Made by a program: the position numbers and the translations under genes. The notes beneath the pieces are model-generated. The model was not told the origin of the DNA. It did no database searches and saw only the letters and a program-made list of their open reading frames with translations. Positions 42,385 through 63,795 of a stretch of 64,000 nucleotides of DNA are shown one piece after another. Within the stretch, counting starts at the first letter, position 1, and each line of letters begins with the position of its first letter. Source of the stretch: Longimicrobiales bacterium (GTDB lineage Bacteria > Gemmatimonadota > Gemmatimonadetes > Longimicrobiales > Gaopeijiaceae); the NCBI GenBank assembly GCA_965218295.1, contig CBDCKN010000003.1:320001-384000 (forward strand), read 5' to 3'.

Positions 42385-42575
42385 TCCCCCCCTGGCTCGA
42401 GACCTTCGCAGCCGATCTTGTGGACTGTATCGAGCTGGGCCTCGAAGGGGACTGGAGCGCGACGGTCAGGACGGTCTGGTCCCGCGACCAGGGCTTTCTG
42501 GGTTTCGACGGCCCGGCGACCGAGCACACGGACTTCAGGCCCGCACTCGAGCTCTACTACTGTCACGTTGAGCAT
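42381..42575 (+). pseudogene. 5' fragment of a hypothetical gene fused to an attC half-site
   Basis: ATG overlaps the upstream stop; frame runs into the attC-family repeat and stops at 42611. Confidence 0.4.
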
Positions 42576-42640
42576 CGCGCTCGCGCGCTGCGCACGCGGT
42601 CGGCATCTTGATCGCGCACTAGAATCGCGAGCCGTTAGAA
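42572..42640 (+). repeat. attC-like site, right half only (R' GTTAGAA)
   Basis: 37 bp identical to 63734-63770; aligns with 52196-52241; ends AGAATCGCGAGCCGTTAG. Confidence 0.7.
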
Positions 42641-42792
42641 CGCGCGTGATCGGCCATGATTGGAGAAGGTGACGGGATGTATGGCACGAGTCCTCATGCA
42701 CGGCACGAGCCAATCGCACTGGCACAGCTCCCCACGGCCGCGGCGGAGTGCTTGGCGCCGAAGGGTCGGTGCGCGACGAGGCCCACAGGCAA

Positions 42793-44361
42793 ATGACTGA
42801 CTGGCCGAATCGCAAACCGCGAGTGGGCGCGCCGGCGATTATGGCGTGCGGCAATCTCGTCCTGAGCCTCTTTCTCGCGGTGTTCTTCTTCTGGTGGCCG
42901 CTCGGCGCCGTCGTTCGCGGGCTCGGGATGCTGCGAGACCCCGCGACCATCCCGGAGTTCGCCTTCGAGTGGCACAGGACCCTGTCACCGCGGATCGAGG
43001 AATGGGCTCAGCGTCGGGTCGCCTCCGGCCGGGCCTCAACGCTCGCGATCTCGCAGGTGGCTGCGACCGAGTGGCCTGTCTTCGGGTCGGTCTTCTATCT
43101 CTGGGCTACGGAGGCACTTCACGATTATCGAGATGGGGCCGGGATCAGAGTTGGAGACGAACTGCCGATATCGTATGCGCGGGGTGCGATCGAGGCCTCG
43201 GCCGCCCTGATAGTCGATCCAGGGCATGCCAAATGGGTCATCGATCACTGGGGCGAGGACTACCTCAGTCGCGAAAACGTGTTCTATCGGCTCCTGATCA
43301 TCGGGGGACTCACAAGTTATCAGCGTCTCACCGGCTCTACCCGTTACGAGAGTCTCCTACGCGACCAGACCAACTCGCTTGCAGCCGAGTTGGACGCGTC
43401 GCCCGTGGGGCTTCTGGACGACTATCCGGGAGAGAGCTACACGGTTGACGTTCTGCCGGCATACGCCATGATCCGGCGAGCCGACGCTTTGCTCGGCACC
43501 GATCACTCCGAGGAGCTCGAGCGGGCAAGACGCGCCTTCTCCGGCGGGCGTGTGGATCCGGAGACAGCGCTCCCCGCGTACAGGGTCGACTCACGAACCG
43601 GCGAGGCGATCGGCCCATCCAGGGGAGTCGGGGTCTCCTACATGCTGATATGGGCCCACGAGCTTTGGCCGGACAGTGCAAGGGCCTGGTATCCGCGATT
43701 TGAAGAGCACTTCTGGCAGGAAGGTCGTTTCCTCAGCGGGTTCCGGGAGTTCACTCGATCGGAAGGGGCCGGTGAATGGCTCGTGGAGGTGGACACGGGG
43801 CCGGTCTTGGCCGGGTTAGGAACCTCCTCGAGCGGTTTCGGAATGGCAGCGGCGAGAGTCCACGGACATTCGAGGCACGCCTACGCGTTAGGCTCTGAAG
43901 CGCTTGCTGCTTCGTGGCCCCTCCCGGACGGCTCTCTCATAGGGGGACGGCTCTTCTCGAGCATGAGCGACGCGCCATTCCTGGGAGAATCGATCCTCCT
44001 CTTCGGCTTCACTCGGACCGGGCTCTCGCGGGGAAGGGAAAGCGTCGACCTTTCCCTTCCCCTTTTCGTCCCACTAATGCTCGCCGTGTTGGGCGTCGGC
44101 GGCCTGCTTTACCTAGGGGCAGGCGTGAGCAGCTACCGACGACACTCCAGTCCCATCTCGACAGTCCGATACCCCAAAGCACAGCTGACGACTTGGGCGA
44201 GCCTCCTCGTCCTCGGAGCCCTCGCCTCCTTCGCTTCGGACGATCCCTTGAGGGTCCTGCTCGTGCTCACCCTCCCTCTGCTGCTTCCTCGCGGTGGGGC
44301 GACGGCGGAACGAGCCGCAGTCGAGGCGGTGCGATCGCAAAGTGCCGGATCGCCCGTCTAG
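42793..44361 (+). CDS. Membrane-anchored hypothetical protein, possibly linalool dehydratase/isomerase-like
   Basis: Long ORF with N- and C-terminal TMs; LLDDYPGESYTVDV and GFREF motifs; family call is by recognition only. Confidence 0.55.
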   Translation: MTDWPNRKPRVGAPAIMACGNLVLSLFLAVFFFWWPLGAVVRGLGMLRDPATIPEFAFEWHRTLSPRIEEWAQRRVASGRASTLAISQVAATEWPVFGSVFYLWATEALHDYRDGAGIRVGDELPISYARGAIEASAALIVDPGHAKWVIDHWGEDYLSRENVFYRLLIIGGLTSYQRLTGSTRYESLLRDQTNSLAAELDASPVGLLDDYPGESYTVDVLPAYAMIRRADALLGTDHSEELERARRAFSGGRVDPETALPAYRVDSRTGEAIGPSRGVGVSYMLIWAHELWPDSARAWYPRFEEHFWQEGRFLSGFREFTRSEGAGEWLVEVDTGPVLAGLGTSSSGFGMAAARVHGHSRHAYALGSEALAASWPLPDGSLIGGRLFSSMSDAPFLGESILLFGFTRTGLSRGRESVDLSLPLFVPLMLAVLGVGGLLYLGAGVSSYRRHSSPISTVRYPKAQLTTWASLLVLGALASFASDDPLRVLLVLTLPLLLPRGGATAERAAVEAVRSQSAGSPV

Positions 44362-44454
44362 TCGAGTCCAAAGCTCACAAGATGCCCCCCGGCAGCGAGA
44401 GCGGAGTTGTCGTCTCCCTCTGGACCTGCTGACCGGCGCCTCAATCTGAACGTA

Positions 44455-45659
44455 TGAACAGCGCACCTGATGGTTGACACAATGGTGCCAGCTGATGGTT
44501 AACAGATTGGGTTACGTCCTGTGTTGCCGTGGGTGTCGAAAATGACGAAGAGTTCTTCGTCAAACCACCCGAGGGTAATGGGTCCGAAGTAGATTTGCCA
44601 CAGAGCGGGACCGATGGGTTCGAGCCCGATGAACTCGTTGCCGAGCGCCGAGCTGATGTTGATCCAACGCGAGTGCCAGCGGATGCCTCCGTTCGTAGAG
44701 ACCTTACGGACCTCGAAGTGCTCGGGGTATTCGATAGGCGGAAGGACATCGGGGTAGGCTCTAAGAGCCGATCGGTAGACTGAATCGGGCGTCGCATCGT
44801 CGAGCGCCTCATGCGGCCGGATGGAATTGAAGGTGCGGCGGAAGTGGTTGAAGTGACGCTGCTGGGCACGGAGGTTGGCCTTCGGCGGCCGAGTGGCTTC
44901 GCGCTTGAGGGTTCGGTGCATGCGTTCGTGACGGCCATTCTGCTGCGGCTTACCAGGCTCGATGGTCTCAGGACGGATGCCGAGCCGGATCCACCAAGCG
45001 CTGAGGCGTGTGAGCCGAGCGAGGCCGATGGAAGCGAAGGGCGTGCCGTTGTCGGAGCGGATGACGGCGGGAACGCCGAACTCACGGAAGACCTTGATGA
45101 ATACGGGCTTGGCGAGCTCGATCGACGTGGAGTACAGCCCTCTGCACTCGAGCAGGAATCGGCTGAAACCGTCCTGGATGGTAAGGGGATAGCAGTAGCG
45201 GCCGTTGAGCATCTTGAACTGGCCTTTGAAGTCGACCGTCCAGACCGCATTGGGCTCGTCCATGGGGGTGAGTGGCTTACCGGGATGGCCCGGCTTACCG
45301 GAGCGTCGGCGCTTCTTCGTGATCAGGTCGTGACGCTCGAAGATACGGTCGATCGTCCTGCGAGCTGGTGCCTCGCCGAACTTCTCAGCTGTGAGTTTAC
45401 GGATCTTGCGTGATCCCCACCCGTAGCGCTGACGCAGATCCACGACGTGTTCCACGACACCTTCCGCTACGGCATGCGGGCAGTGGTGGGGCCGGTGAGA
45501 GCGGTCGTGGAGTCCCTCGAATCCCTCCGCGAGGAACCGTGTCCACCACTTGTATCCGGCGGCCCTGCTGATGCTGTAGCGCCTACAGGACTCGGCGAAA
45601 CTGAAGGTGCGTTGCTGAACTTCGAGGATGAAACGTACTCTTTGCTCGTACATGGTCAA
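44455..45659 (-). mobile_element. IS481-family element type B, copy 1; 5' end missing
   Basis: Repeated TGT(C/T)AACCATCAG motifs at the 3' end; 5' end fused to a truncated cupin gene. Confidence 0.8.
44499..45659 (-). CDS. IS481 family transposase (probably missing the first codons)
   Basis: HTH; WTVDFKG, DGFSR, RSDNGTPF, QNGRHERMHRTLK, RPHEAL. Confidence 0.88.
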   Translation of the reverse strand: MTMYEQRVRFILEVQQRTFSFAESCRRYSISRAAGYKWWTRFLAEGFEGLHDRSHRPHHCPHAVAEGVVEHVVDLRQRYGWGSRKIRKLTAEKFGEAPARRTIDRIFERHDLITKKRRRSGKPGHPGKPLTPMDEPNAVWTVDFKGQFKMLNGRYCYPLTIQDGFSRFLLECRGLYSTSIELAKPVFIKVFREFGVPAVIRSDNGTPFASIGLARLTRLSAWWIRLGIRPETIEPGKPQQNGRHERMHRTLKREATRPPKANLRAQQRHFNHFRRTFNSIRPHEALDDATPDSVYRSALRAYPDVLPPIEYPEHFEVRKVSTNGGIRWHSRWINISSALGNEFIGLEPIGPALWQIYFGPITLGWFDEELFVIFDTHGNTGRNPIC

Positions 45660-45921
45660 GGCACGTGAAGAAAGGTGCCAGTGTTAGCCTCGATCTCGTC
45701 TCCGTCCACCCAAAAAGTGACTGTTCCTTCTAAGATGTAGAATCCTTCTTCTTCCCGCGTCTGGATGTGGGGGGGGGGCCTCCGCCTGGCGGGACGAGCC
45801 CCTCCATAATGAAGTAATGGCCGTCGGTTTCCTCCCCAGTCGCCAGGTATCGGTATTCATCGCCGGCCCCCTGGATGGTCTCTCGATCATCCTGCGGGCG
45901 CACCACAATGGCCTTTCCCAT
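45660..45921 (-). pseudogene. Cupin-domain protein, truncated at the IS481 junction and frameshifted in a G run
   Basis: MGKAIVVRP...VPPGGGPPP then, after the shift, HIQTREEEGFYILEGTVTFWVDG...GTFLHVP. Confidence 0.75.
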
Positions 45922-46005
45922 GGATCGTCCTCATATGAGAGCGGAATTCGGTCCCGGTGGTCCCACCTGCTCCGAAATGATGGGCCCGTAATGTCATGGG
46001 GGGAA

Positions 46006-46029
46006 GCTGCCTAAAAGGAGTTATACAGC
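46006..46029 (+). other. Cassette start core site GTTATAC (46020), in a possibly attI-like context
   Basis: GTTATACAGC is the reverse complement of GCTGTATAAC at the cassette end; preceded by GCCTAAAAGGA. Confidence 0.6.
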
Positions 46030-46047
46030 GCTCTCCGACAATGACGC

Positions 46048-46076
46048 TGGACGTTAATAGCGCGATACGTTATGGT
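46048..46076 (+). promoter_or_regulatory. Sigma70-type promoter of the higBA cassette, probably leaderless
   Basis: TGGACG-17bp-TATGGT, ending 5 bp before the GTG start. Confidence 0.6.
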
Positions 46077-46081
46077 TAGCG

Positions 46082-46363
46082 GTGATCAAGAGCTTCAAGG
46101 ATCGAGACGCCGAGCGGCTCTTCCATCGTAGGCCGGTCAGGCGGCTGGGCACCGATGTCCAGCGTACCGCCCTTCGGAAGCTCCGCATGCTCGACGCTGC
46201 GACGACGCTCGATGACCTACGCATACCCCCGGCGAACCGACTGGAAAAGCTGAAGGGGGACCGAGCGGGGCAGCATAGCATCCGCGTCAACCGACGGTGG
46301 CGGATCTGCTTTCGGTGGCGTTCGAGCGACGCGCACGACGTTGAGATTGTCGATTACCATTGA
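46082..46363 (+). CDS. higB: HigB toxin (RelE/ParE superfamily)
   Basis: MIKSFKD, PPANRLEKLKGDRAGQHSIRVNRRWRICFRW, VEIVDYH. Confidence 0.93.
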   Translation: MIKSFKDRDAERLFHRRPVRRLGTDVQRTALRKLRMLDAATTLDDLRIPPANRLEKLKGDRAGQHSIRVNRRWRICFRWRSSDAHDVEIVDYH

Positions 46364-46372
46364 GGGAATGCC

Positions 46373-46684
46373 ATGGCCACGACGACGCTAACGCCAATCC
46401 ACCCTGGTGAGGTCCTGCTTGAGGAGTTTCTCGAGCCTATGGGCATCAGCCAGTATCGTTTGGCGAAGGACATCAGTGTATCTCCACGCCGCATCAATGA
46501 GATCGTGCATGGCAAGCGCGCCGTGACGGCCGACACGGCACTCCGGTTATCCCGATACTTCGGAACGTCGGACAAGTTCTGGCTCAATCTCCAGACGGGT
46601 TATGATCTCGATGTCGAACGCGATCGGCTTGGAGACCGACTGGAAGCCGAGGTCCTACCCCGCGCTGCTCGGGATCAACTTTGA
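46373..46684 (+). CDS. higA: HigA antitoxin; last codons replaced by the IS30 end
   Basis: PIHPGEVLLEEFL, RRINEIVHGKRAVTADTALRL, FWLNLQ; original end VLPRAV-TAA lies at 52163-52170. Confidence 0.93.
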   Translation: MATTTLTPIHPGEVLLEEFLEPMGISQYRLAKDISVSPRRINEIVHGKRAVTADTALRLSRYFGTSDKFWLNLQTGYDLDVERDRLGDRLEAEVLPRAARDQL

Positions 46685-46956
46685 AGTGCAACAGGGGCTA
46701 GGCTTTTGAGTTGAGTTCATAACAATCCTTGGGGGTGAGGAAGCCGAGTCGTTTACGAGGTCGGTTGTTGAGTTTGTGAGCGATGCGGTTGCAAGCATGC
46801 TGGGTGATGTGAGCCATGCTGGTACGCTTCGGCAGATACTGACGGATCAGGCCGTTCGTGTTCCGGAACCTGTCAACGCCAGTGAGACACTCTTGGAAAT
46901 CAATTAGAGAGCAATCTCCTGTGTAGTGAGGGATGGGGTGGGAGGATTGATCCAGA

Positions 46957-48187
46957 TGTACAGAGATGGTAATGACCTGACAGTTGGCCCTCGCCGGAGC
47001 TGTGTCTAGGCTGCCTTCGTCTTAGCCTCCTCCTTCCTGGCCTTTGCGGCCTTCCTGGCGTCGGTGAGACCGGCCTTGAAGACCTGATAGGGCGTGCGGC
47101 CCTCCATGGCTCGACCGCGGTGCGGCCGCTTCCGGTTGTAGGTCTCCAGATACGCCTCGAGGTCCTGCTGCATCTCCTCGACGGTCTCGTACCAGGTGGT
47201 GCGGCCCTTCACCCTCAAGTGCTCGTCGAGGAGCGTGCGGTGGAAGCGCTCGATGAAGCCGTTGGACTGGGGCCTGCCCACCTTCGTCGTGCGGTGCTCG
47301 ATGTCCTCGAGCTGAAGGAACAGCTCATATGGGTGACGGTCCGGACGGCCGCAGAACTCGCGGCCGTTGTCGCTGAGCACGGTCTTCACCCGGACCCGGT
47401 GCTCATCGAAGAACGGCAACACGTCGTTATTCATCACCTGCACCGCCGTGAGCGGGAGCTTGCTCGTGTAGAGCCGGCCCCAGGCGTAGCGGCTGAAGCA
47501 ATCGAGCACGGTCTGCAGGTACACCTTGCCGACCCCCTTCAGCGTTCCGACGAAGAACGTGTCCACGGCGACGAGGTCGCCCGGGTAATGGACTTCGATG
47601 TGGCGCTCCCGGAACTCGGGACTGAAGCGCTCCAGCAGCTCGATCTGCTCGTCGGTCAGCTTCAGCTTCCGTTCCCTGGCCGTCTCTTCGAGCCTGAGCA
47701 GCCGTTCGTGCTTCGTGGTGAGGCCATGCCGGCTCCACACGCCCCGTACGCCTCCTGAGCTCACCTGGATCCCTCCGAGCAGCAACTCGTCCGCGACCCG
47801 CTGAGCTCCGTGCGTCGGAGCCTCCAAGGCGTGGGCCAAGACCGCCTGCTCAATCTCTTCACTCACCCGGTTCGGGTGCGGTCCCTTCGGCCCCGGAAGC
47901 TGGTCGATCAGCCCCTCGGCCCCGTAAAGCTGGAAGTTCCTCCTGATCTCGTAGAACTGCTGCCGGCTGTAGCCCACGATCTTGCACGCCTTGCTCACGT
48001 TGCCGAGCTCCTGGGCCAACTGTAGCAGGCTCAGCTTGCGGCGCGCTATCTTCTCCCCCTGGACGGTGGTCATCTTCTCTCCCGTGCTAAGTGAGTGACT
48101 TCGACATCTCTCAATTAGCTCCGGCGAGGGCGGCTGGCCACCGTCCTCTCTCGTGGTCAACTGTCAGGTGAATACCGTCTCAGCACA
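46957..48187 (-). mobile_element. IS481-family element type A, copy 1 (1231 bp)
   Basis: TGT...ACA TIRs (TGTACAGAGATGGTAATGACCTGACAGTTG / TGTGCTGAGACGGTATTCACCTGACAGTTG); 7-bp TSD ATCCAGA. Confidence 0.92.
47006..48073 (-). CDS. IS481 family transposase
   Basis: GNVSKACKIVGYSRQQFY, DTFFVGTLKGVG, SDNGREFCG, NGFIERFHRT. Confidence 0.92.
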   Translation of the reverse strand: MTTVQGEKIARRKLSLLQLAQELGNVSKACKIVGYSRQQFYEIRRNFQLYGAEGLIDQLPGPKGPHPNRVSEEIEQAVLAHALEAPTHGAQRVADELLLGGIQVSSGGVRGVWSRHGLTTKHERLLRLEETARERKLKLTDEQIELLERFSPEFRERHIEVHYPGDLVAVDTFFVGTLKGVGKVYLQTVLDCFSRYAWGRLYTSKLPLTAVQVMNNDVLPFFDEHRVRVKTVLSDNGREFCGRPDRHPYELFLQLEDIEHRTTKVGRPQSNGFIERFHRTLLDEHLRVKGRTTWYETVEEMQQDLEAYLETYNRKRPHRGRAMEGRTPYQVFKAGLTDARKAAKARKEEAKTKAA

Positions 48188-49144
48188 ATCCAGACGGCCT
48201 CCGGGAGTGGTTTAGGCTTCGGCTCACCGGAGACGAAGCGCTCGGGATGAGCGGCCCATGCCTCACGGAGCACGGCCTTCCTGCAGGCGATGATCCGATC
48301 GGCGTGACCGAAGTGGACCTGTTCGGGGGTCAGCATCGAGATGCCGCCATGGCGGTGCTCGGCATTATACCAACGGAAGAACGAGCGACAGAAGGTCTTG
48401 GCTTGCCCCTGATCCCCGAACCGGCCGGGAAACGAGGGATGGTACTTCAAGGTCTTGAACTGAGCCTCGGAGAACGGATTGTCATCCGAGACCTGGGGTC
48501 GGCCCAACGAGCGGGTCACGCCGAGATCGGCGAGTAGTTGAGCCGTGCATTGGCTCGTCATCGGAGCCCTCGATCGGAATGCAGGGTCAGGAGGTGGGGC
48601 TGGACGCCATGCTTCAAGCAACTCTGCTGGATCAGCCGGCTGGCCAGGGCAGAGTTCTCCCGATCCGCCACCATCCATCCCACGACGTAGCGGCTGAAGA
48701 TGTCCAGGATCACGTAGAGGTAGAAGTAACTCCACTTCTTCGGCCCCAGCAGCCGGGTGATATCCCAGGACCAGACCTGGTTCGGGCCCCTCGCCATCAA
48801 CTCGGGTTTCTGGTATTTGGGATGACTCCGCTGCGCTCGACGCTCCTGAACCGGCACCTGGGAAGCCAGAACGCGATACATCGTACGCTCGCTGCACAGG
48901 TAGACGTCCTCGTCGAGCAGCGTCGCCACCACCTCGGCTGGGGACCGGTCCACGAACCGCTCCGAACACAGCGTGTCGAAGACCTTGTCTCGTTCCTTCT
49001 CGCTTAAGGCCCGGGCGGGGGTCGGGCGGGGCTGCTGATGCCCGGTCGATGGCCTCCGACGACGGTAGAACGTGGCTCGCGGCACCCTGAGCGCATCGCA
49101 CGCGGGCTTCACCCCTACGTGCTTGGCTAGCTCCTGGGTCGCCT

Positions 49145-49594
49145 TCATGAGTTCGTCCCGTCCTCGAGGCTCAATCCCAGCAGCCCTGCAACTTTTCCCT
49201 GGACGTCGATGATCAAGTGCGCCTTCTGGAGCTCCTTCTCGAGGCGAGTGTTCTCGCGCTCCAGCTTGCGCACCTTCTCCTCCAGCGGATTGCGCTCGCG
49301 CTTACGGCCTCGTTTCTTCGACAGCGCTTTCAGGGACCCGCTATGCGCCGCCTTGCGCCATGTCGTCAGGTGCGACGAGTACAAGCCCTCCCGCCGTAGG
49401 AGTCGGCCAACCTCTCCGGGCTCCGTGCACCGGTCCGCTTCTTCGACGATCCGCAGCTTGTACGACGGAGCGAACCGCCGGCGCAGCGGCCTATCTACCA
49501 CCTCCGAGTCCGCAGGAGCTGCCGCGCTTCGCTTACCGTCCCAGGTTGGTGGGGCTATTCCATTCTCTTTCATTCTCTCTCGGTGTCTCAGCAT
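49145..49594 (-). CDS. IS3-like OrfA
   Basis: RRRFAPSYKLRIV, LLRREGLYSSHLTTWR, leucine zipper. Confidence 0.85.
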   Translation of the reverse strand: MLRHRERMKENGIAPPTWDGKRSAAAPADSEVVDRPLRRRFAPSYKLRIVEEADRCTEPGEVGRLLRREGLYSSHLTTWRKAAHSGSLKALSKKRGRKRERNPLEEKVRKLERENTRLEKELQKAHLIIDVQGKVAGLLGLSLEDGTNS

Positions 49595-50293
49595 CCTCGG
49601 TTTCTCTGCCTTCGCCCTACTCTAATTCCTTAGCTGCTCCGTGTCTCACGTAAGTTGGCAGAGAGGGTTCTCGCTGGTCCCCCTTTCCCAAGAGTGGTAG
49701 GGGGTGGCGAAGTAGAATTTCGATCCGGTTTCTGCTTCGATCCCTCGCCCCATAGCCGTGGAACTCAGTTCCGTTGTCGGCCGTGATGGTGTGAGTGGGG
49801 CGAGCGGCAGTCTTGATCAGACGAACGGCTCGACGGTTCGTAGCCTCGACGGTACGAGCCTCGAGCTTGCCGATCATCACGTAGCCCGTCTTATGATCGA
49901 CGAAGGTGAGGACGCAGTGCTTGTCGGAGCTGGTACCGATCACGGTATCGGCTTCGAGGTGGCCGACTCGGCTTCGGTTCTGTGCACCAGCTGGGCGCTC
50001 AGATATCGGCCGTTTGCCGGCCAACCGACCTCGGGAATCATAGGATCCGTACCGTTTTCGGCGTTGCTTGGGCGAACAGTGCAGATGCAGATACAGGCGG
50101 CCACCGCGCTTTCGGTCGCGCCAGATGTGGCGGTAGATGGTCTCGTGGCTGATCGAGAGCCGAGCCTTGCGCCGTAACCAGCCTGCGGCTTGCTCAGGGC
50201 TCCACTGTTGCCTGAGGCACGCCTCCACCATTCGCCAGTCCGATGCACCGAAGCGGAGCCTGTCAACGCCAGTGAGACACTCTTGGAAATCAA

Positions 50294-54100: not shown

Positions 54101-54140
54101 TTGATTTCCAAGAGTGTCTCACTGGCGTTGACAGGTTCCG

Positions 54141-55487: not shown

Positions 55488-55621
55488 TTGATTTCCAAGA
55501 GTGTCTCACTGGCGTTGACAGGTTCCGCATGATCTCCTGTGCGAGGTGGGGGGCTCAGTCAGCAGAAGAAGGTCGTCGAACGACATGCGCGACCAGGAGC
55601 TCACCCCGTGGATCCTGAACC

Positions 55622-56169
55622 TCAAGCGACATGGCGCCACGCCTCACCTGTGCGAAGCATCGCGTGCACCGCACGAGCGAGCTTGCGTGCGGTGGCGATG
55701 CGAGCGACACGCCAATCGAGCCGATCCTTGAGCCGGTCGTAGTACTGGCTGAGCCAGCTATCGGGAGATCGGCCATGATGGATGACGACGGTCTGGACGA
55801 AGGCATTACGGAGCCAGCGGTTGGCACCGGCCGGGATCGGCCCGTAGCGGACGGTCATCCCGGAACGAGAGGAACGAGGAGCGAGTCCTGCATAGCTCAC
55901 GAGGTGCTTCGGGCCTCGGAAGCGCTCGATCGGCAGGGTCTCGGTGGCGATCAAGAGGGCGCGGTAGGGTCCGATGCCGGGAACCGTGCGAAGGAGTTCG
56001 ACGGCCGGGATCTCGCGGCCGACCTCGAGGATGCGACGGTCGAGCGACTTGATCATGTCCTTGAGTTCGTCTGCGATGCGCTCATGCGTGCAGATGAGTC
56101 GTTGCTGCTCGGGCCCCATGCGGGGCCAGGCGATGGTATGGACCCAGCCACGTCCCTCGGCGGTGAGCA
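55622..56169 (-). pseudogene. C-terminal half of the IS110 recombinase
   Basis: Near-identical to the 3' half of 57859..58878. Confidence 0.85.
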
Positions 56170-56346
56170 CCTATAAAGCGGACCCGGTCAATAGGACGCA
56201 CGCCACCTAGGGCCTGCGCGAGCAGGCCATCGTAGGTGTTCCTCAGATCCTTCAGCATCCCCAAGTCTCCTGCGGCGTGATGTTGAGAAGTGGTTGGATC
56301 ACGCGACCGATCGAAGGCGAGTCTTGTCAGGGACTCGAGCACCTAT

Positions 56347-57724
56347 GAGGTTGGGTCAATAGGTGTGTAAACGTATTAGGCGGCGTTCTTCCGCTGTTGG
56401 TGTGAGACGGGCTTTCCGTCTTCGAACTTTCTTCCTTCAAATACGTCCTTGAGGAGGTGAGGAGCGTCGAGCCTTCGGAACCGCTTCTCAGCCACCAAGA
56501 GCAACTTCCAGATTAGCGCCGTAGCGCTCTCGACCCGCTTGAACCGCTTCGCTGCTGTCGTCCTGAGCCGTACCGCAGCGAACGGGCTCTCGACCACGTT
56601 CGTCGTGCGTAGATGCTTCCAGTGGTCCTCGGGGAAGTCGTAGAACGCTACCATCCGCTCCCAGTCGTCCTCGAGTACGTCCACTGCTTTCGGATACCAC
56701 GGCCTATAGCGTCGGGCGAACACCTCGCGGGCCTTCAGGGCCTCGGCCCGGCTCGGTGCGTAGACCACGGCCCGGAGAAGATCCTTCGCCTCGCCCTGCT
56801 CCCGCTGAGGTAGTCGGTCCAGCACGTTCCTCATCTTGTGGTTCCAGCACCGTTGCTCGCCCGCCTCAGGCCATACCTGCCGTACTGCGCCCCAGATCGC
56901 CGCGTTGCCGTCCGCCATCAAAAGCCGGGGCGCCTCGATGCCGCGTGCCTTCAGATCCCGCAACACCTCCGACCAGGACTCGACCGACTCTCGGTAGCCC
57001 GATCTCAGGGCCAACACCTCCTTCGTCCCGTCTCGCATCGCGCCCAGCACCACCAGTAGCGCCGCCTTGTCCCGCTCGAGCCCTGCCTTCACGTAGATCC
57101 CGTCCGCCCATACGTAGACGACCTCACGGCCCTCCAGGCGACGCTGGCTCCATTCCTCGAACTCCGCCGTCCATCCCGCCCGCAGTCTCCGAATCGAAGA
57201 CTTCGACAGCGGTGCCCCCTCGCCTAGCAGTCCCCGCATCGCCAGCTCGAAGTCTCCCTCTGCCAGTCCGTGCAGATACAGCTCCGGAAGCAGAGCGCCC
57301 AGCTCCTTCGTCCGCCTCGCGAACAACGGCAGCACCCGACTCTCGAACCGCTCCTCGACGCCCCGAACCCGAGGGCGTCGGAGTGTGATCGTGCCCGAGC
57401 TCATCGCCAGCCGCCTCGGCTTGCCGTATCCGTTGCGGTAGCCCTCGGTCGCGTCCACCACCCTCCTGCGCTCTGACTTCTCTCGCCCTAGCAACTCCGT
57501 GACTTCCTCCTCCAAGATCTGTTGAATGAACTCCTGCGCCTTCTCCCGAACCACTTCTTCCAGAACTTCCCACACGGGCGTCCTGGACTCACCCTCGGGT
57601 CCCACCGTATTCTTCCTCACGAGGCGTCGTTCCTTTCCCCCGGGCTGTCACCCGGAGTTCGCTGGTTATTACTCAGCGGAAAGGTACGTCGCCTCTCTTT
57701 TTACACACCCTTTGATCCTAGCTC
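56347..57724 (-). mobile_element. IS256-family element, copy 2 (1378 bp)
   Basis: Same TIRs as copy 1; 8-bp TSD GCACCTAT. Confidence 0.93.
56376..57620 (-). CDS. IS256 family transposase
   Basis: Two amino-acid differences from 24090..25334. Confidence 0.93.
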   Translation of the reverse strand: MRKNTVGPEGESRTPVWEVLEEVVREKAQEFIQQILEEEVTELLGREKSERRRVVDATEGYRNGYGKPRRLAMSSGTITLRRPRVRGVEERFESRVLPLFARRTKELGALLPELYLHGLAEGDFELAMRGLLGEGAPLSKSSIRRLRAGWTAEFEEWSQRRLEGREVVYVWADGIYVKAGLERDKAALLVVLGAMRDGTKEVLALRSGYRESVESWSEVLRDLKARGIEAPRLLMADGNAAIWGAVRQVWPEAGEQRCWNHKMRNVLDRLPQREQGEAKDLLRAVVYAPSRAEALKAREVFARRYRPWYPKAVDVLEDDWERMVAFYDFPEDHWKHLRTTNVVESPFAAVRLRTTAAKRFKRVESATALIWKLLLVAEKRFRRLDAPHLLKDVFEGRKFEDGKPVSHQQRKNAA

Positions 57725-57858
57725 GCACCTATTCGGGGTTCGGCCTCTGTAGCGTGGCACGTCCCATGATCTCCTGTGTGAGGTGGGGGGCTCAGTCAGC
57801 AGAAGAAGGTCGTCGAACGACATGCGCGACCAGGAGCTCACCCCGTGGATCCTGAACC

Positions 57859-58878
57859 TCAAGCGACATGGCGCCACGCCTCACCTGTGCGAAGCATCGC
57901 GTGCACCGCACGAGCGAGCTTGCGTGCGGTGGCGATGCGAGCGACACGCCAATCGAGCCGATCCTTGAGCCGGTCGTAGTACTGGCTGAGCCAGCTATCG
58001 GGAGATCGGCCATGATGGATGACGACGGTCTGGACGAAGGCATTACGGAGCCAGCGGTTGGCACCGGCCGGGATCGGCCCGTAGCGGACGGTCATCCCGG
58101 AACGAGAGGAACGAGGAGCGAGTCCTGCATAGCTCACGAGGTGCTTCGGGCCTCGGAAGCGCTCGATCGGCAGGGTCTCGGTGGCGATCAAGAGGGCGCG
58201 GTAGGGTCCGATGCCGGGAACCGTGCGAAGGAGTTCGACGGCCGGGATCTCGCGGCCGACCTCGAGGATGCGACGGTCGAGCGACTTGATCATGTCCTTG
58301 AGTTCGTCTGCGATGCGCTCATGCGTGCAGATGAGTCGTTGCTGCTCGGGCCCCATGCGGGGCCAGGCGATGGTATGGACCCAGCTACGTCCCTCGGCGG
58401 TGAGCAACCGACCGCGGGGCAGGCAGAAGCCCAGAGAGTGGAGCTCGGCATGAATGCGCGACGCCGAGGAGGTCCGCATCCGGACGAGTCGGGCCCGGTG
58501 CCGGACGAGGGTGGCCTGCTCGCGTTGGCTGATGGGTTTGCAGTAGACCTCAGGGATGAGGCGCACGAGTTGCATGCGAGCGAGCAGCGTGGCGTCGATC
58601 GCATCGTTCTTGTAGTTGGCCTCGGCGATCGCACGCAGCTTCTTCGCGTGGGCGAGCACGAAGCGACAATCCGGTCCGTTGAGCAACTCGTATAGCCAGG
58701 GCCAGGACGGACTCGTCTCGACGACGACCTCGAGCGGCCGATAGGCATTCAGCAGCTCAACGAGCCGGTCGGACTCGGTGTTGCGGATGCGGAGCGGCTT
58801 TTGGACGAACGCTCCGTCATTGCTCACGACCGCGACGACGAGGTACGTTGCGTGAGCATCGATTCCTGCGACATACAT
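57859..58878 (-). CDS. IS110 family DEDD recombinase (IS1111 type)
   Basis: AGIDAH, VVET, KNDAIDA, LRTVPGIG, SYAGLAPRSSRSG, ATARKLAR; GGAGG RBS. Confidence 0.92.
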   Translation of the reverse strand: MYVAGIDAHATYLVVAVVSNDGAFVQKPLRIRNTESDRLVELLNAYRPLEVVVETSPSWPWLYELLNGPDCRFVLAHAKKLRAIAEANYKNDAIDATLLARMQLVRLIPEVYCKPISQREQATLVRHRARLVRMRTSSASRIHAELHSLGFCLPRGRLLTAEGRSWVHTIAWPRMGPEQQRLICTHERIADELKDMIKSLDRRILEVGREIPAVELLRTVPGIGPYRALLIATETLPIERFRGPKHLVSYAGLAPRSSRSGMTVRYGPIPAGANRWLRNAFVQTVVIHHGRSPDSWLSQYYDRLKDRLDWRVARIATARKLARAVHAMLRTGEAWRHVA

Positions 58879-58969
58879 GATGGCCTCCTGGTGGTTGGCA
58901 GCCGCAGGTTACTTGGGGAAGTGCCAGCGTAGTGCGCCGGCCGTTGGGAGGCCATCCGCTTTATAAGGT

Positions 58970-58993
58970 CAGCAGAATCGCGAGACGTTAGGA
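58970..58993 (+). repeat. attC of the higBA cassette, right part (L' and R' GTTAGGA)
   Basis: CAGCAGAATCGCGAGACGTTAGGA is complementary to the left arm at 52165-52190. Confidence 0.8.
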
Positions 58994-59027
58994 AGCACTT
59001 ATCCCACCGAAAATCTGGCAGCACTAC

Positions 59028-60254
59028 GTGAAGAAGTTGCGGAGCAGAAACCCGTGGGGATTTAGGGTCGCCTTCTGGGCTTGCCTGACGCTTGTGGCAT
59101 GCGCCCCGAGTGGCGAACCGGACCGAAGGGGTGGTGACGATGCCAACCAAGCAGCGGCGTATGGGCACCCGGATAGCGTACTCTTCTGGACCCCGGAGCA
59201 GCAGCTCGCCGGGTTCCCGAACTACGACCGAATCTTCGAAACCCGAGCGATTCCGGCCGGCTCTGACCCCTTTCCGCTCCCTCGGCGGTTGCGAGATTTT
59301 AGTGGGCTCAGCTACAAGGTCGAAGAAAGAAGCTACGATCTTGAGGCTTTCTTAGAGCATAATCGGGTCGCGGGTCTCCTCGTTCTCAAAGAAGGCTCGA
59401 TCGTCCTGGAGGAGTACCGACTCGGCCACAGACCTGAGACGCTGTGGGTCTCGTACTCGGTGGCGAAGTCCGTCGTTTCATTGCTCATAGGCGCCGCGAT
59501 CCGCGACGGCTACATCAACGGCATCGGCGAACCCGTTACGCAGTATCTCCCGGTCCTGCGCGGCACTTCATACGAGGGCGTGACGATCGGCCATGTCCTA
59601 CAGATGGCCTCGGGCGTGGAGTGGAACGAGGACTACACTGATCCCACCGCCGACGTCAGCCTCGAAATCGGCATGACCAACCAAGAGCGGCTGAGCTTTC
59701 TGAGCAGCAAGAAGCGCCTAGTCGACCCAGGTGTTCGCTTCAACTACAACACCGGTGAGACGCACCTCGCAGGAGCGGTACTGGGGGCCGCGATCGGAAA
59801 CCACCTGGCGACATACCTTGGCTCGAAGATCTGGCAGCCGTTCGGTATGGAGCACGACGCCAACTGGAGGCTCGTTGAGCCGGGAGGCGCGGAGCACGGC
59901 GGTTGCTGCATCAGCGCGACGCTCCGTGACTACGGCCGACTCGGCATGTTTGCACTTCGAGCGGGTACACTACGCAATGGCGACCAGACCCTCCCTCCGG
60001 GCTGGATGGACGCGTCCAAGGCCCCGTCCGCAGGGAATCCAGGCTATGGCTACCTCTGGTGGCTCGGCGACGGTCAGTCGTACGCGGCAAGAGGAATCTT
60101 CGGGCAAGGGATCTTCATCGATCCCTCGGACAACGTCGTGATCGTCACGCACAGCGCGTGGCCCGTCCCGACCGGGACGGAGTTCTCAGCGCACAGAGAC
60201 GCACTGGTCGCTGCGCTGAAACAAACCCTGAATGAGACGGGGGCCGACGAGTAG
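59028..60254 (+). CDS. Serine hydrolase, beta-lactamase/NylB-like family, probable lipoprotein; gene cassette
   Basis: SVAK (SxxK), LQMASG, FNYNTG, DYGRLG, YGYLWW, ARGIFGQ; LVAC lipobox. Confidence 0.88.
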   Translation: MKKLRSRNPWGFRVAFWACLTLVACAPSGEPDRRGGDDANQAAAYGHPDSVLFWTPEQQLAGFPNYDRIFETRAIPAGSDPFPLPRRLRDFSGLSYKVEERSYDLEAFLEHNRVAGLLVLKEGSIVLEEYRLGHRPETLWVSYSVAKSVVSLLIGAAIRDGYINGIGEPVTQYLPVLRGTSYEGVTIGHVLQMASGVEWNEDYTDPTADVSLEIGMTNQERLSFLSSKKRLVDPGVRFNYNTGETHLAGAVLGAAIGNHLATYLGSKIWQPFGMEHDANWRLVEPGGAEHGGCCISATLRDYGRLGMFALRAGTLRNGDQTLPPGWMDASKAPSAGNPGYGYLWWLGDGQSYAARGIFGQGIFIDPSDNVVIVTHSAWPVPTGTEFSAHRDALVAALKQTLNETGADE

Positions 60255-60274
60255 TGTTCGGACCCTGCGTGCTT

Positions 60275-61383
60275 CTCGGGATCAACTTTGAAGTGCAACA
60301 GGGGCTAGGCTTTTGAGTTGAGTTCATAACAATCCTTGGGGGTGAGGAAGCCGAGTCGTTTACGAGGTCGGTTGTTGAGTTTGTGAGCGATGCGGTTGCA
60401 AGCATGCTGGGTGATGTGAGCCATGCTGGTACGCTTCGGCAGATACTGACGGATCAGGCCGTTCGTGTTCTCGCTGGTCCCCCTTTCCCAAGAGTGGTAG
60501 GGGGTGGCGAAGTAGAATTTCGATCCGGTTTCTGCTTCGATCGCCCCATAGCCGTGGAACTCAGTTCCGTTGTCGGCCGTGATGGTGTGAGTGGGGCGAG
60601 CGGCAGTCTTGATCAGACGAACGGCTCGACGGTTCGTAGCCTCGACGGTACGAGCCTCGAGCTTGCCGATCATCACGTAGCCCGTCTTACGATCGACGAA
60701 GGTGAGGACGCAGTGCTTGTCGGAGCTGGTACCGATCACGGTATCGGCTTCGAGGTGGCCGACTCGGCTTCGGTTCTGTGCACCAGCTGGGCGCTCAGAT
60801 ATCGGCCGTTTGCCGGCCAACCGACCTCGGGAATCATAGGATCCGTACCGTTTTCGGCGTTGCTTGGGCGAACAGCGCAGATGCAGATACAGGCGGCCAC
60901 CGCGCTTTCGGTCGCGCCAGATGTGGCGGTAGATGGTCTCGTGGCTGATCGAGAGCCGAGCCTTGCGCCGTAACCAGCCTGCGGCTTGCTCAGGGCTCCA
61001 CTGTTGCCTGAGGCACGCCTCCACCATTCGCCAGTCCGATGCACCGAAGCGCTCATTGCGGCGCGATCTGCCTCGTCTCCACCGGGCGTAGTCATCGGCC
61101 AGGTCCGGTCGATAGGCCCGGCCCTGACGATCCTTCGAGTTGCGGCGCACCTCACGGCTGATCGTACTTCGATGTCGGCCCAGTGCTCGAGCGATCGCAG
61201 CTTGGTTGCATCCTTGTTTTCTGAGCGCAGAGAGCGCATATCGCTCACCAGAGGTGAGCTGGCGATACCCTGTTCATGAACTTCCTCCTTTTCGTCGAGA
61301 AGGAAGGTCTAGGGCGTCCCAGCTCGCCTCAACTTCTTTGTGGAGTTCGGTCGGGTGGTTTGTTGCACTTACTATATGAATCC
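60275..61383 (-). mobile_element. IS30-family element, copy 2 (last 3 bp of one end lost)
   Basis: Same TIRs as copy 1; abuts the IS481 type B end. Confidence 0.88.
60305..61277 (-). CDS. IS30 family transposase with a +1 frameshift near 61269
   Basis: WSPEQ, SHETIY, HLEADTV, DNGTEF, WERGTSENTNGLIRQYLPK; one extra C relative to copy 1. Confidence 0.87.
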
Positions 61384-61802
61384 TGAACAGCGCACCTGAT
61401 GGTTGACACAATGGTGCCAGCTGATGGTTAACAGATTGGGTTACGTCCTGTGTTGCCGTGGGTGTCGAAAATGACGAAGAGTTCTTCGTCAAACCACCCG
61501 AGGGTAATGGGTCCGAAGTAGATTTGCCACAGAGCGGGACCGATGGGTTCGAGCCCGATGAACTCGTTGCCGAGCGCCGAGCTGATGTTGATCCAACGCG
61601 AGTGCCAGCGGATGCCTCCGTTCGTAGAGACCTTACGGACCTCGAAGTGCTCGGGGTATTCGATAGGCGGAAGGACATCGGGGTAGGCTCTAAGAGCCGA
61701 TCGGTAGACTGAATCGGGCGTCGCATCGTCGAGCGCCTCATGCGGCCGGATGGAATTGAAGGTGCGGCGGAAGTGGTTGAAGTGACGCTGCTGGGCACGG
61801 AG

Positions 61803-63033
61803 TGTACAGAGATGGTAATGACCTGACAGTTGGCCCTCGCCGGAGCTGTGTCTAGGCTGCCTTCGTCTTAGCCTCCTCCTTCCTGGCCTTTGCGGCCTTC
61901 CTGGCGTCGGTGAGACCGGCCTTGAAGACCTGATAGGGCGTGCGGCCCTCCATGGCTCGACCGCGGTGCGGCCGCTTCCGGTTGTAGGTCTCCAGATACG
62001 CCTCGAGGTCCTGCTGCATCTCCTCGACGGTCTCGTACCAGGTGGTGCGGCCCTTCACCCTCAAGTGCTCGTCGAGGAGCGTGCGGTGGAAGCGCTCGAT
62101 GAAGCCGTTGGACTGGGGCCTGCCCACCTTCGTCGTGCGGTGCTCGATGTCCTCGAGCTGAAGGAACAGCTCATATGGGTGACGGTCCGGACGGCCGCAG
62201 AACTCGCGGCCGTTGTCGCTGAGCACGGTCTTCACCCGGACCCGGTGCTCATCGAAGAACGGCAACACGTCGTTATTCATCACCTGCACCGCCGTGAGCG
62301 GGAGCTTGCTCGTGTAGAGCCGGCCCCAGGCGTAGCGGCTGAAGCAATCGAGCACGGTCTGCAGGTACACCTTGCCGACCCCCTTCAGCGTTCCGACGAA
62401 GAACGTGTCCACGGCGACGAGGTCGCCCGGGTAATGGACTTCGATGTGGCGCTCCCGGAACTCGGGACTGAAGCGCTCCAGCAGCTCGATCTGCTCGTCG
62501 GTCAGCTTCAGCTTCCGTTCCCTGGCCGTCTCTTCGAGCCTGAGCAGCCGTTCGTGCTTCGTGGTGAGGCCATGCCGGCTCCACACGCCCCGTACGCCTC
62601 CTGAGCTCACCTGGATCCCTCCGAGCAGCAACTCGTCCGCGACCCGCTGAGCTCCGTGCGTCGGAGCCTCCAAGGCGTGGGCCAAGACCGCCTGCTCAAT
62701 CTCTTCACTCACCCGGTTCGGGTGCGGTCCCTTCGGCCCCGGAAGCTGGTCGATCAGCCCCTCGGCCCCGTAAAGCTGGAAGTTCCTCCTGATCTCGTAG
62801 AACTGCTGCCGGCTGTAGCCCACGATCTTGCACGCCTTGCTCACGTTGCCGAGCTCCTGGGCCAACTGTAGCAGGCTCAGCTTGCGGCGCGCTATCTTCT
62901 CCCCCTGGACGGTGGTCATCTTCTCTCCCGTGCTAAGTGAGTGACTTCGACATCTCTCAATTAGCTCCGGCGAGGGCGGCTGGCCACCGTCCTCTCTCGT
63001 GGTCAACTGTCAGGTGAATACCGTCTCAGCACA
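61803..63033 (-). mobile_element. IS481-family element type A, copy 2 (1231 bp)
   Basis: TGT...ACA TIRs; imperfect 7-bp TSD CACGGAG/CCCGGAG. Confidence 0.92.
61852..62919 (-). CDS. IS481 family transposase
   Basis: Same protein as 47006..48073. Confidence 0.92.
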   Translation of the reverse strand: MTTVQGEKIARRKLSLLQLAQELGNVSKACKIVGYSRQQFYEIRRNFQLYGAEGLIDQLPGPKGPHPNRVSEEIEQAVLAHALEAPTHGAQRVADELLLGGIQVSSGGVRGVWSRHGLTTKHERLLRLEETARERKLKLTDEQIELLERFSPEFRERHIEVHYPGDLVAVDTFFVGTLKGVGKVYLQTVLDCFSRYAWGRLYTSKLPLTAVQVMNNDVLPFFDEHRVRVKTVLSDNGREFCGRPDRHPYELFLQLEDIEHRTTKVGRPQSNGFIERFHRTLLDEHLRVKGRTTWYETVEEMQQDLEAYLETYNRKRPHRGRAMEGRTPYQVFKAGLTDARKAAKARKEEAKTKAA

Positions 63034-63733
63034 CCCGGAGGTTGGCCTTCGGCGGCCGAGTGGCTTCGCGCTTGAGGGTTCGGTGCATGCGTTCGTGACG
63101 GCCATTCTGCTGCGGCTTACCAGGCTCGATGGTCTCAGGACGGATGCCGAGCCGGATCCACCAAGCGCTGAGGCGTGTGAGCCGAGCGAGGCCGATGGAA
63201 GCGAAGGGCGTGCCGTTGTCGGAGCGGATGACGGCGGGAACGCCGAACTCACGGAAGACCTTGATGAATACGGGCTTGGCGAGCTCGATCGACGTGGAGT
63301 ACAGCCCTCTGCACTCGAGCAGGAATCGGCTGAAACCGTCCTGGATGGTAAGGGGATAGCAGTAGCGGCCGTTGAGCATCTTGAACTGGCCTTTGAAGTC
63401 GACCGTCCAGACCGCATTGGGCTCGTCCATGGGGGTGAGTGGCTTACCGGGATGGCCCGGCTTACCGGAGCGTCGGCGCTTCTTCGTGATCAGGTCGTGA
63501 CGCTCGAAGATACGGTCGATCGTCCTGCGAGCTGGTGCCTCGCCGAACTTCTCAGCTGTGAGTTTACGGATCTTGCGTGATCCCCACCCGTAGCGCTGAC
63601 GCAGATCCACGACGTGTTCCACGACACCTTCCGCTACGGCATGCGGGCAGTGGTGGGGCCGGTGAGAGCGGTCGTGGAGTCCCTCGAATCCCTCCGCGAG
63701 GAACCGTGTCCACCACTTGTATCCGGCGGCCCT

Positions 63734-63795
63734 GCGCTCGCGCGCTGCGCACGCGGTCGGCATCTTGATCAGGCAGCAGAATCGTGAGACGTTAG
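63734..63795 (+). repeat. attC-like site, right half
   Basis: ...GCAGCAGAATCGTGAGACGTTAG; 37 bp identical to 42577-42613. Confidence 0.75.

Follow-up and report, generated by a model that had tools for sequence, protein, structure and literature searches.

The insertion sequence (IS)-laden cassette cluster in the window, a 64,000-nucleotide stretch of a Longimicrobiales contig, is very probably the remnant of its lineage's chromosomal integron. The integrase gene, intI, was deleted, and the remaining attC sites are held by three IS lineages, each at one fixed attC position, which likely freeze the array and draw in more IS copies. As read from sequence, this view appears well founded on synteny with a congener across both flanks, a deletion junction, three insertion registers, empty sites and an attC bias of the IS30 clade in other phyla. 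G000 denotes the genome of the window, G001 and G002 its congeners, and G011 a further relative. IntI was called with TIGR02249 (cut-off 265 bits) and IS30 elements with NF033563 (cut-off 80). An attC HMM was trained on sites from G001 and G011 alone, with none from G000, and a family-specific attC covariance model (CM) was applied to the window, where an Rfam scan gave no matches. The features of the locus are as follows.

41113..42384, +, metB/cystathionine gamma-synthase-like gene (PF01053), anchoring the integron locus on its left
42382..42557, +, 5' part of a small ORF whose G002 counterpart precedes intI; 3' side apparently lost with the intI deletion
42558..42640, +, attC-a, missing R'' and ~14 nt at its start; R' at 42634-42640
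42748..44361, +, 537-aa ORF in cassette position, no attC behind it
44455..45657, -, IS481-like element A, start lost to deletion
45658..45923, -, 5' half of a cupin-like gene, truncated by the same deletion as IS481-like A
46002..46022, +, attI-like core, left crossover of the higBA cassette
46020..46667, +, higBA toxin-antitoxin cassette (PF05015, TIGR02607)
46668..52162, -, IS30-family copy 1, 3-bp target site duplication CTG, abutting R'' of attC-b
52165..52242, +, left part of attC-b (R'', L'' and variable terminal structure; HMM and CM)
52243..58969, -, IS1111-type element (NF033542) at the core CA of attC-b
58970..58993, +, right part of attC-b; R' at 58987-58993
58987..60274, +, serine-hydrolase cassette, beta-lactamase fold (ORF 59028-60254; PF00144)
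60275..61383, -, IS30-family copy 2 (NF033563, 269 bits)
61384..63733, -, IS481-like element B, enclosing another IS481 (61803-63033); truncated on the right by a deletion into attC-c
63734..63795, +, right half of attC-c; R' starts at 63791
63796..64000 and on to position 384966 of contig C3, -, IS110-group element, AG core inside R' of attC-c

What we take to be a DUF2867-like cassette follows the IS110-group element, and then a degenerate attC arm. A sequence-only reading had described an array under about 20 kb of nested IS elements; the nesting is as described but the size is not, as IS DNA makes up 16,884 of 21,224 bp. That reading did not recognize that the cluster arose by deletion of intI, that an attI-like site and internal deletions are present, or that three of the ISs are attC-specific.

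The integron locus and its missing integrase gene

The metB-like gene is 92-93% identical to the gene directly upstream of intI in G001 and G002; intI adjoins the metB orthologue in both congeners (2/2), and each encodes an IntI above the cut-off, as do 73 of the 301 family genomes. The gene order in G001, metB–intI–attI–cassettes–DUF2867–hlyIII, is syntenic with the window locus on both flanks (92-97% identity), and the attC family forms there a same-strand array of 12 hits, ending at the DUF2867 and hlyIII genes that also follow the window. Similarity to G002 stops at 42557, exactly where attC sequence starts. This suggests that a deletion from 42557 into an attC took intI, the original attI and an uncounted number of cassettes. 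The proposal of an integrase-less attC cluster is supported by the intI-bearing congeners and by the genome-wide search that its author had suggested: in G000 the best IntI match scored 85.8 bits, and none of its 28 tyrosine-recombinase matches is IntI-grade. The genome is 90.7% complete, so that intI could still lie elsewhere in it.

Three attC sites on the same strand in the window, a degenerate arm beyond it and no integron integrase nearby make the locus a CALIN, the 537-aa ORF without a site of its own being the exception, and intI at the same locus in related species points to a sedentary chromosomal integron as the ancestral state. With intI lost by deletion, the CALIN would be one formed by integrase loss, a known kind. 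Deletion junctions lie at 42557, 45657/8 and 63733/4, and the pieces of the array were thus not all adjacent originally. In the proposed course, IS3, IS481 and IS256 copies would have inserted inside the attC-sited elements once these were in place, and later deletions would have erased attC arms.

The array shares with described degraded chromosomal integrons, in the parts of the reports cited here (Cury 2016, PMC4889954; Treponema phagedenis, PMC3607928), an attC cluster that lacks intI, is syntenic with intI-bearing relatives and is associated with ISs. It differs from known CALINs in that the deletion junction and three attC-specific ISs can be read base by base, which makes it a clean, base-resolved case of a CALIN born when intI was deleted at a syntenic locus, a route that has been among those debated since 2016. 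A GTTA core lies behind intI at 23 of 34 IntI loci, as compared with 3 on the canonical side, and the integrase is co-oriented with the cassettes, as in Treponema (the integron description in PMC3607928).

Elsewhere in G000, contig C9 carries the 3' end of a G001-type intI plus its attI, and eight more solitary attC pieces were found, which suggests a contribution from a further platform or from off-site insertion. We think it very improbable that the cluster was built de novo from cassettes at secondary (attG) sites, at a locus that never had an integrase. Such insertion has been shown experimentally (within the portion of bioRxiv 10.1101/2022.09.11.507474 that is cited here), and both the eight solitary pieces and the site at 46020, which follows the cupin gene and not intI, would fit it. 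However, both flanks are those of the G001 intI locus, the left flank is also that of G002, and the 42557 junction cuts the ORF that precedes the G002 intI. Synteny thus appears to have largely refuted this origin. Against the deletion origin, 68 kb of sequence surrounding the G002 intI yielded no attC of the window's family.

The attC sites

The sequence-only reading had joined 52165-52242 to 58972-58993 into a palindromic attC of about 100 bp. The junction is correct: rebuilt around the shared core CA, attC-b is a 100-bp site that, once the ISs are excised as its author proposed, matches the relatives-only HMM over its full length at 94.7 bits, as compared with 71.1 bits unjoined and 102.7 bits for an intact site on contig C1. 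The IS1111-free junction occurs naturally in three public runs (X18, X19 and X20), in which the right part of attC-b is joined to an intact attC arm. Half-sites that had been placed at 42572 and 63734 were recovered as CM matches on the same strand, namely attC-a (~42558-42640; CM 50.1 bits, HMM positions 17-102 at 50.5 bits) and the right half of attC-c (63734-63795; CM 31.7 bits, HMM 37 bits).

The boxes of attC-b, GTATAAC at 52165 and the complementary GTTAGGA at 58987, correspond to the R'' (RYYYAAC) and R' (GTTRRRY) cores, of which AAC and GTT are invariant in 19 of 19 family sites. Constrained and free folds and covariation all revealed an L''/L' stem; the R'' arm carries the extrahelical bases, and the central spacer is unpaired. 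Across the family 91.5% of cells are paired, with two-sided changes in 8 of 22 pairs; none of 500 shuffles reached this level of pairing and slid controls gave 23-53%. When folded freely, the rebuilt attC-b does not exceed shuffles in stability (z = -1.08; the intact C1 site, z -3.24), and the minimum is 1.0 kcal/mol below its recombinogenic fold. The two bulged bases reported earlier are present; they are G and T on the top strand and so read C and A on the bottom strand, where G would be canonical. The first extrahelical base of attC-b is C in place of G, and a G-to-C change is tolerated according to the section of PMC2727003 cited here.

That the repeat is a REP-like palindrome, with the nesting partly a product of misassembly, is hardly credible. 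Single copies are scattered in G000 and there are odd partial duplications at 52455-56346. Nevertheless, the repeat forms same-strand, one-gene-per-repeat arrays behind intI in G001 and G011, the organization that the sequence-only reading had expected of it, the AAC/GTT cores are conserved with covariation, and the junctions across 58948-60304 recur in contigs of other runs, one of them possibly the source sample. The REP reading of the repeat is already refuted.

Insertion sequences at fixed attC positions

Three IS lineages have invaded the array and sit at three fixed attC positions: IS30 at the 5' edge of R'', the IS1111 type at the core CA and the IS110 group inside R'. IS30 copy 1 has 25-bp imperfect inverted repeats and a CTG duplication (46665-46667/52163-52165), and is interrupted by IS3 (46864-49666 and 50256-51822) and IS481 (46957-48187). 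Copy 2 has lost its last 3 nt and its transposase frame is broken near the start; it would occupy the same register at R'' as copy 1. Family membership follows from NF033563, at 269 bits in the window and 283 bits in an intact relative (genome G139, locus L097). Both intact left ends in G000 (in the window and at C1:80243) abut an R'' box, and in G188 an IS30 lies at the identical point after higA.

Across several phyla, AAC lies at one exact offset from 53 of 70 distinct ends of this clade, which are non-independent with several per genome, versus 4 of 47 at the other end. A strict attC hairpin was found at 24 of 70 ends, whereas random TAAC sites had one in 3 of 408 cases and shuffles in 5 of 265; a lax test separated poorly (35/70 versus 111/414). 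In two Vibrio replicons TAAC adjoins the element at 10 of 14 copies and at 7 of 7, respectively, the latter with 4 distinct flanks. Of the 17 ends (out of 70) without AAC, 10 are within 2 mismatches of YYTAAC, and only 24 of the 47 copies having both ends carry matching 3-bp duplications. Ends with and without AAC are intermixed in the tree (13 changes, no clustering), so that the targeting is a clade-wide bias with misses. The clade separates from 6 other IS30s with a support of 98 (FastTree), which is weak evidence because membership was defined by similarity to the query element. The R'' target was not seen at the three readable outgroup ends (IS4351, IS1112a and one more).

The IS30 transposase likely reads linear YYTAAC(A) on one side only and would insert 3 bp upstream with the same end always adjacent. 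It is unlikely, although conceivable, that it instead reads the folded hairpin or mistakes R'' for its own inverted-repeat tip. Targets are mostly attC although little is shared past YYTAAC, and CCTA, the consensus tip of the right end, resembles CCTA at the start of the target; against this, the element inserts outside the hairpin, and its off-target sites resemble the target in sequence but have no hairpin. Targeting by end mimicry was rejected, as ends and targets do not covary (123 own-end/own-target matches versus 123.1 in shuffled pairs, p 0.57).

The nearest named elements, ISVa6 and ISVvu6 (names from RefSeq products), likewise match NF033563, with ~25-bp imperfect inverted repeats, 3-bp duplications and a length of ~1.1 kb; ISVa6-type proteins are 58-59% identical and also sit at Vibrio attC R''. 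ISVa6 has been named without a target (PMC4572688). In contrast to the IS30 family at large, the window clade has a one-sided, oriented attC target. Group IIC-attC introns also insert between cassette gene and attC with the site intact (in the part of PMC8876359 cited), but are retroelements, whereas this IS30 is a DNA transposon. No description of IS30 insertion at the R'' position was found in the article texts searched.

The IS1111-type transposase (57859-58878) belongs to an element that is partly duplicated and holds IS3 copies (52455-55527) and an IS256 (56347-57724). It has subterminal inverted repeats, and the non-coding region downstream, ~306 nt long, contains two 8-nt matches to the target; CA plus an R'-like GTT follows 12 of 17 ends. 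With its IS110-family transposase and fixed attC position, it has the features of the IS1111-attC group, for which Tetu and Holmes (2008) and Post and Hall (2009) are reportedly the sources. Described members (ISPst6, ISKpn4, ISPa25), in the seekRNA account as far as cited (PMC11187229), share a DEDD transposase, subterminal repeats, a long downstream non-coding region with short target matches and one fixed attC position, a likeness of features. The window IS30 differs from this group in being of DDE type, with a target duplication, no guide-length non-coding region and attC unbroken.

An empty site of the IS110-group element is present in G001. GTT precedes the core at 36 of 40 ends and an attC-arm motif occurs at 16 of 40 versus 10 of 773 in the background; only 5 of 38 sites pass the strict hairpin test (control 6/263). 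In run X17 a copy lies in R' of attC-b. GTTAG at 63791 was rejected as the element's end, being target sequence. With a CT core on its own strand, the element has an upstream non-coding region with target loops (6-nt left and right guides in an internal loop) and donor loops (left guide 7-nt, right with one mismatch), LTG/RTG and LDG/RDG; the overall fold is unexceptional (z -0.92). A bridge RNA is predicted. IS621 targets REP. The 63796 element resembles the IS621-type bridge recombinases in these upstream target and donor loops, as far as cited from PMC11208160; unlike a REP-type target, its predicted guides spell the attC R' box and cassette start, and the supplementary target lists of that report may bear on this claim. 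The IS1111-type and IS110-group elements are each predicted to find their target by a guide RNA that they encode. Insertion of the IS1111 type would split the attC hairpin, and that of the IS110 group would keep GTTAG beside the hairpin and push the downstream cassette away.

IS30 leaves attC whole, so that a cassette excised by an integrase would carry the element along. We favor, with fair but not strong confidence, the view that the IS30 clade, which spans phyla and takes in Vibrio ISVa6 and ISVvu6, represents an undescribed class of integron parasite: these DDE transposons would read R'' and insert just outside it in one orientation, leaving the site recombinable, so that as cassette cargo they are shuffled and spread by integrases. 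Together with the RNA-guided IS1111 and IS110 elements the clade would partition attC into three niches, and pile-up, not neutral decay, would make chromosomal integrons fossil clusters. Beyond the IS1111 group and the group IIC introns of the literature searched, attC sites would be targets of further transposon families. An R''-side IS30 would hitchhike on cassettes and make annotation separate genes from their attC sites; in large arrays, e.g. those of Vibrio, it would also give rise to nested insertions and deletions. Its short, one-sided target makes recognition directly testable.

The cassettes and the attI-like core

The higBA cassette comprises higB (46082-46363) and higA, which starts at 46373 and, with IS30 discounted, ends at 52170. 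Removal of IS30 with one CTG restores the higA stop inside GTATAAC, as had been claimed: HigA then ends ...RAV-stop, with TAA within the box, and homologous higBA cassettes in relatives end likewise. Of 24 homologues, 5 have a family attC behind them. The cassette start at 46020 is, again as first noticed, the reverse complement of the higA end, over 12 bases. A sigma-70 scan upstream of higB found no promoter; relatives share a conserved TTGACG...TATG motif accompanied by a palindrome, which has one change in the window copy, and the cassette likely has its own promoter. It would help to keep the segment in place.

Position 46020 is preceded not by attC but by an attI-like core (CTAAAAGGA then GTT), with no intI upstream. 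It has 9 contiguous bases in common with a site 204 nt behind the G002 intI, the presumed attI, against a background of ≤4 bases at 737 other GTTA[GT][AG] sites of G000. A 13-mer attI motif in G011 was rejected as attI, since it is a phage ribosome-binding site, and the motif can thus arise by chance. The remnant before the core, which we take to be a cupin gene from a motif with no library match, matches loci of G001 and G011 at 73-76% DNA identity and is probably frameshifted in a G run; full copies of the adjoining IS481-like A on contigs C10 and C12 run beyond 45657.

A mosaic is a serious possibility, to which we give slightly less than an even chance: the ends would come from the resident integron and the cupin–attI–higBA–hydrolase block from a second platform, or a truncated-attI (ΔattI-type) cassette boundary would be present. 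This would account for the attI-like core lying in mid-array, with its resemblance to G002 ending after ~20 nt, and is consistent with the unexplained 45657/8 junction, which has no target duplication, the platform remnant on C9, the IntIs of G001 and G002, only 41% identical at one locus, and ΔattI cassettes as described in the cited part of PMC12901181. Conversely, cupin lies beside higBA in none of the 301 genomes, and the 13-mer has its chance counterpart in the G011 phage. The mosaic is compatible with the deletion origin and does not exclude it.

The serine hydrolase scores far under every named beta-lactamase cut-off. Of the R'' said to close its cassette GTGCTT is present, but the remainder is gone, cut after GTGCTT, and can only be presumed. 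The 537-aa ORF has no Pfam or NCBIfam family and is carried by 0 of 200 family genomes; its Atlas matches are hypothetical clusters (0.98) and Ldi (0.87, on 32% of members), a weak lead toward a linalool-dehydratase-like protein.

The integrase-less array and its origin

The stretch 42572..63795, read from sequence alone as a hidden integron-type cassette array beneath about 20 kb of nested insertion sequences, was parsed by BLAST against the host's own genome and by coordinate-level dissection, with IS family labels taken from Pfam and NCBIfam.

Insertion sequences in the region (window coordinates)
44455-45657, IS481-A
46668-52162, IS30 copy 1, containing two IS3 and one IS481
52243-58969, IS1111-type element, partly duplicated, containing IS3 copies and an IS256
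60275-61383, IS30 copy 2
61384-63733, IS481-B, containing another IS481
from 63796, IS110-group element

The IS total had been overstated, as the elements from IS481-A to IS481-B account for 16,884 of 21,224 bp. Two further deletions, at 45657/8 and 63733/4, mean that neighbouring pieces may not be original neighbours. The IS load is very high genome-wide, with dozens of near-identical IS3, IS481 and IS256 copies.

No IntI was found in the host genome (G000, with the window at C3:320001-384000; 3.57 Mb, 65% GC, 90.7% complete), where the best match scored 85.8 bits against a cut-off of 265; tyrosine-recombinase matches numbered 28. A covariance model built from 19 attC sites, none of them from the host, matched three window positions on one strand (52.6, 50.1, and 31.7 bits). 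In two congeners, G001 and G002, intI comes directly behind the counterpart of the metB-like gene (41113-42384), to which it is orthologous. On its single contig, G001 has metB followed by intI, an inferred attI and 12 attC hits on the same strand, and then three right-flank genes, DUF2867-like, hlyIII-like, and glyoxalase-like, to which the genes after the window are 95-97% identical. Similarity between the window and G002 ends at 42557, in the small ORF preceding intI, and attC sequence starts immediately. Because this break leads directly into attC at a locus where the congeners carry intI, a deletion must have removed intI, attI, and some cassettes.

The absence of IntI from the assembly, the same-strand attC matches and the congeners' intI at the syntenic locus bear out the hidden, integrase-less array. 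Objects of this type are already known; what sets this one apart is how clearly its origin can be read. Such clusters (CALINs) are traced in PMC4889954 to loss of the integrase and to rearrangement by IS, among other sources, and PMC3607928 describes in Treponema phagedenis a syntenic array that, like the window locus, has no intI. Of 301 family genomes, 73 have an IntI above the cut-off. A GTTA core lies behind intI at 23 of 34 loci and on the canonical side at three, and all four attC hits (4/4) were co-oriented with intI. Judged from these positions, IntI in the host's family faces its own array, the orientation also reported for Treponema integrons (PMC3607928).

Within the array, 42748-44361 encodes a 537-aa protein whose ends are predicted membrane regions. 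None of 200 family genomes has it; it matches unnamed clusters common in Verrucomicrobiota, and a linalool dehydratase/isomerase lead is weak.

The rebuilt attC site and the higBA cassette

Joining the two parts of the attC site split by the IS1111-type element (attC-b, 52165-52242 and 58972-58993) gave a 100-bp site. It matched from end to end, at 94.7 bits, an HMM for which G001 and G011 (a relative of another genus) supplied the 16 sites; the unjoined site reached 71.1 bits and an intact sister on contig C1 reached 102.7. Contigs from three public sequencing runs (X18, X19, and X20) carry an unbroken attC arm followed by the hydrolase cassette and diverge from the window exactly at 58970; this is the natural empty site of the insertion. 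At window position 60268, 6 bp upstream of where IS30 sits, the same runs have a different IS end that breaks the hydrolase cassette and also occurs behind the G002 attI.

Support for the attC structure comes from 91.5% of cells being paired and from two-sided changes in 8 of 22 pairs (0 of 500 shuffles as high), figures that kinship can inflate. Counting against it, the free fold of rebuilt attC-b is no more stable than shuffles (z -1.08), although its recombinogenic fold is only 1.0 kcal/mol costlier. The bulged bottom-strand bases are C and A; a G to C exchange of the first bulge was tolerated in an experiment (PMC2727003). The genome contains eight further solitary attC pieces, some of which may reflect off-site insertion at secondary attG sites, a process described in bioRxiv 10.1101/2022.09.11.507474. 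An intact attC of the family, at G000:C1:80246-80346 in the host genome, has the same IS30 end before it and what looks like the start of a cassette gene behind it.

As proposed, removal of IS30 copy 1 with one CTG restored a HigA end with its stop inside GTATAAC, and the cassette start at 46020 is the complement of that end over 12 bases. Among 24 homologous loci, a family attC stands behind higBA in five and in front, on the same strand, in four; one, in genome G188, has this IS30 inserted at the identical base. The site before higBA matches the inferred G002 attI over nine contiguous bases versus at most four at 737 background sites. Against this, it stands behind a cupin fragment, and its 13-mer recurs in G011 as a phage ribosome-binding site. 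A true attI remnant is a reasonably probable reading of this site, and truncated attI sites within arrays are described in PMC12901181.

Ahead of higB, 46040-46081 resembles a promoter and operator, with TTGACG ... TATG and an inverted repeat. Judged by eye, 23 of 24 homologues keep this motif, and the window copy differs by one change in its -35. In G011 (locus L066, C1:3567541), the GTTAGAC of the higBA cassette immediately follows the end of another IS110-family element.

IS30 insertion beside the R'' box

Both intact left ends of IS30 in the host genome lie 3 bp from an R'' box, and a third, truncated end fits that register by complementarity. Sampling of 29 family loci and the best 80 of 387 GTDB loci yielded 70 distinct readable left ends, which are non-independent; six ends too close to a contig end and one duplicate were dropped, and loci with no recognisable end were uncounted. 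AAC occurred at a single offset in 53 of 70 left ends (TAAC in 47); of 47 right ends, 4 had it. Three readable outgroup ends gave TAAC at the offset in none (0/3). Of the 70 ends, 24 passed a strict hairpin test, which random TAAC sites passed in 3 of 408 cases and shuffles in 5 of 265. A lax version discriminated poorly (35/70 versus 111/414). The logo of the targets carries signal on one side only, and 10 of the 17 misses differ from YYTAAC at no more than two positions, which favours reading of the target sequence by IS30. Matching target-site duplications were present in only 24 of 47 copies, the mismatches probably arising from later recombination between copies.

Hosts of the clade span Gemmatimonadota, Verrucomicrobiota, Acidobacteriota, Myxococcota, Chloroflexota, and Pseudomonadota, and its closest named members are ISVa6 and ISVvu6. 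TAAC is at the offset in 10 of 14 and 7 of 7 (four distinct) copies of two Vibrio records, and one further copy lies at a Vibrio repeat whose core is degenerate. Taken together, the insertion positions place the window IS30 in a widespread attC-homing clade.

In the literature searched, with most subscription papers and ISfinder outside it, we found no description of IS30 targeting of attC, integrons, superintegrons, or VCRs, including for ISVa6 and ISVvu6, nor of attC targeting by the IS110 group. Passages of PMC4572688 name ISVa6 with no target, and those of PMC8876359, PMC12444791, and PMC3971601 mention at attC only IS1111-attC elements or introns.

Other attC-associated elements and integron platforms

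Two of the elements are of the DEDD type. The IS1111-type one carries subterminal repeats and, downstream, ~306 nt of non-coding sequence in which two 8-nt segments match the two target strands; both matches take in the core, as reported for seekRNAs (PMC11187229). CA and an R'-like GTT follow 12 of 17 related ends. The IS110-group element is inserted at the AG core inside R', at a site that is empty in G001, and in sequencing run X17 a copy occupies R' of attC-b. Internal loops of its upstream region hold predicted guides that match target and donor, as in IS621 (PMC11208160). GTT precedes the core in 36 of 40 close ends and the attC-arm motif is present in 16 of 40 versus 10 of 773 background sites; only 5 of 38 sites pass the strict hairpin test. 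The target is a sequence typical of attC, not attC exclusively.

A 3' end of a G001-type intI, a spacer, an attI-like site and a first cassette are found at G000:C9:259174-258942, with the remaining intI missing; this is a second dead platform in the host genome. The G001 (C1:3441723) and G002 (C3:382059) integrases occupy the same chromosomal locus with only 41% identity and different attI regions, and G001 IntI is 88% identical to the enzyme of G011, which suggests platform replacement at this locus.

At the G|TT crossover, many attC sites (L080, L081, L083, and L084 of G011; L074:3728 of G001) continue into one identical sequence starting GTTCTATGAAAG, which looks like a fourth element specific for attC. 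Near such sites G011 also encodes a 297-aa recombinase, in seven copies.
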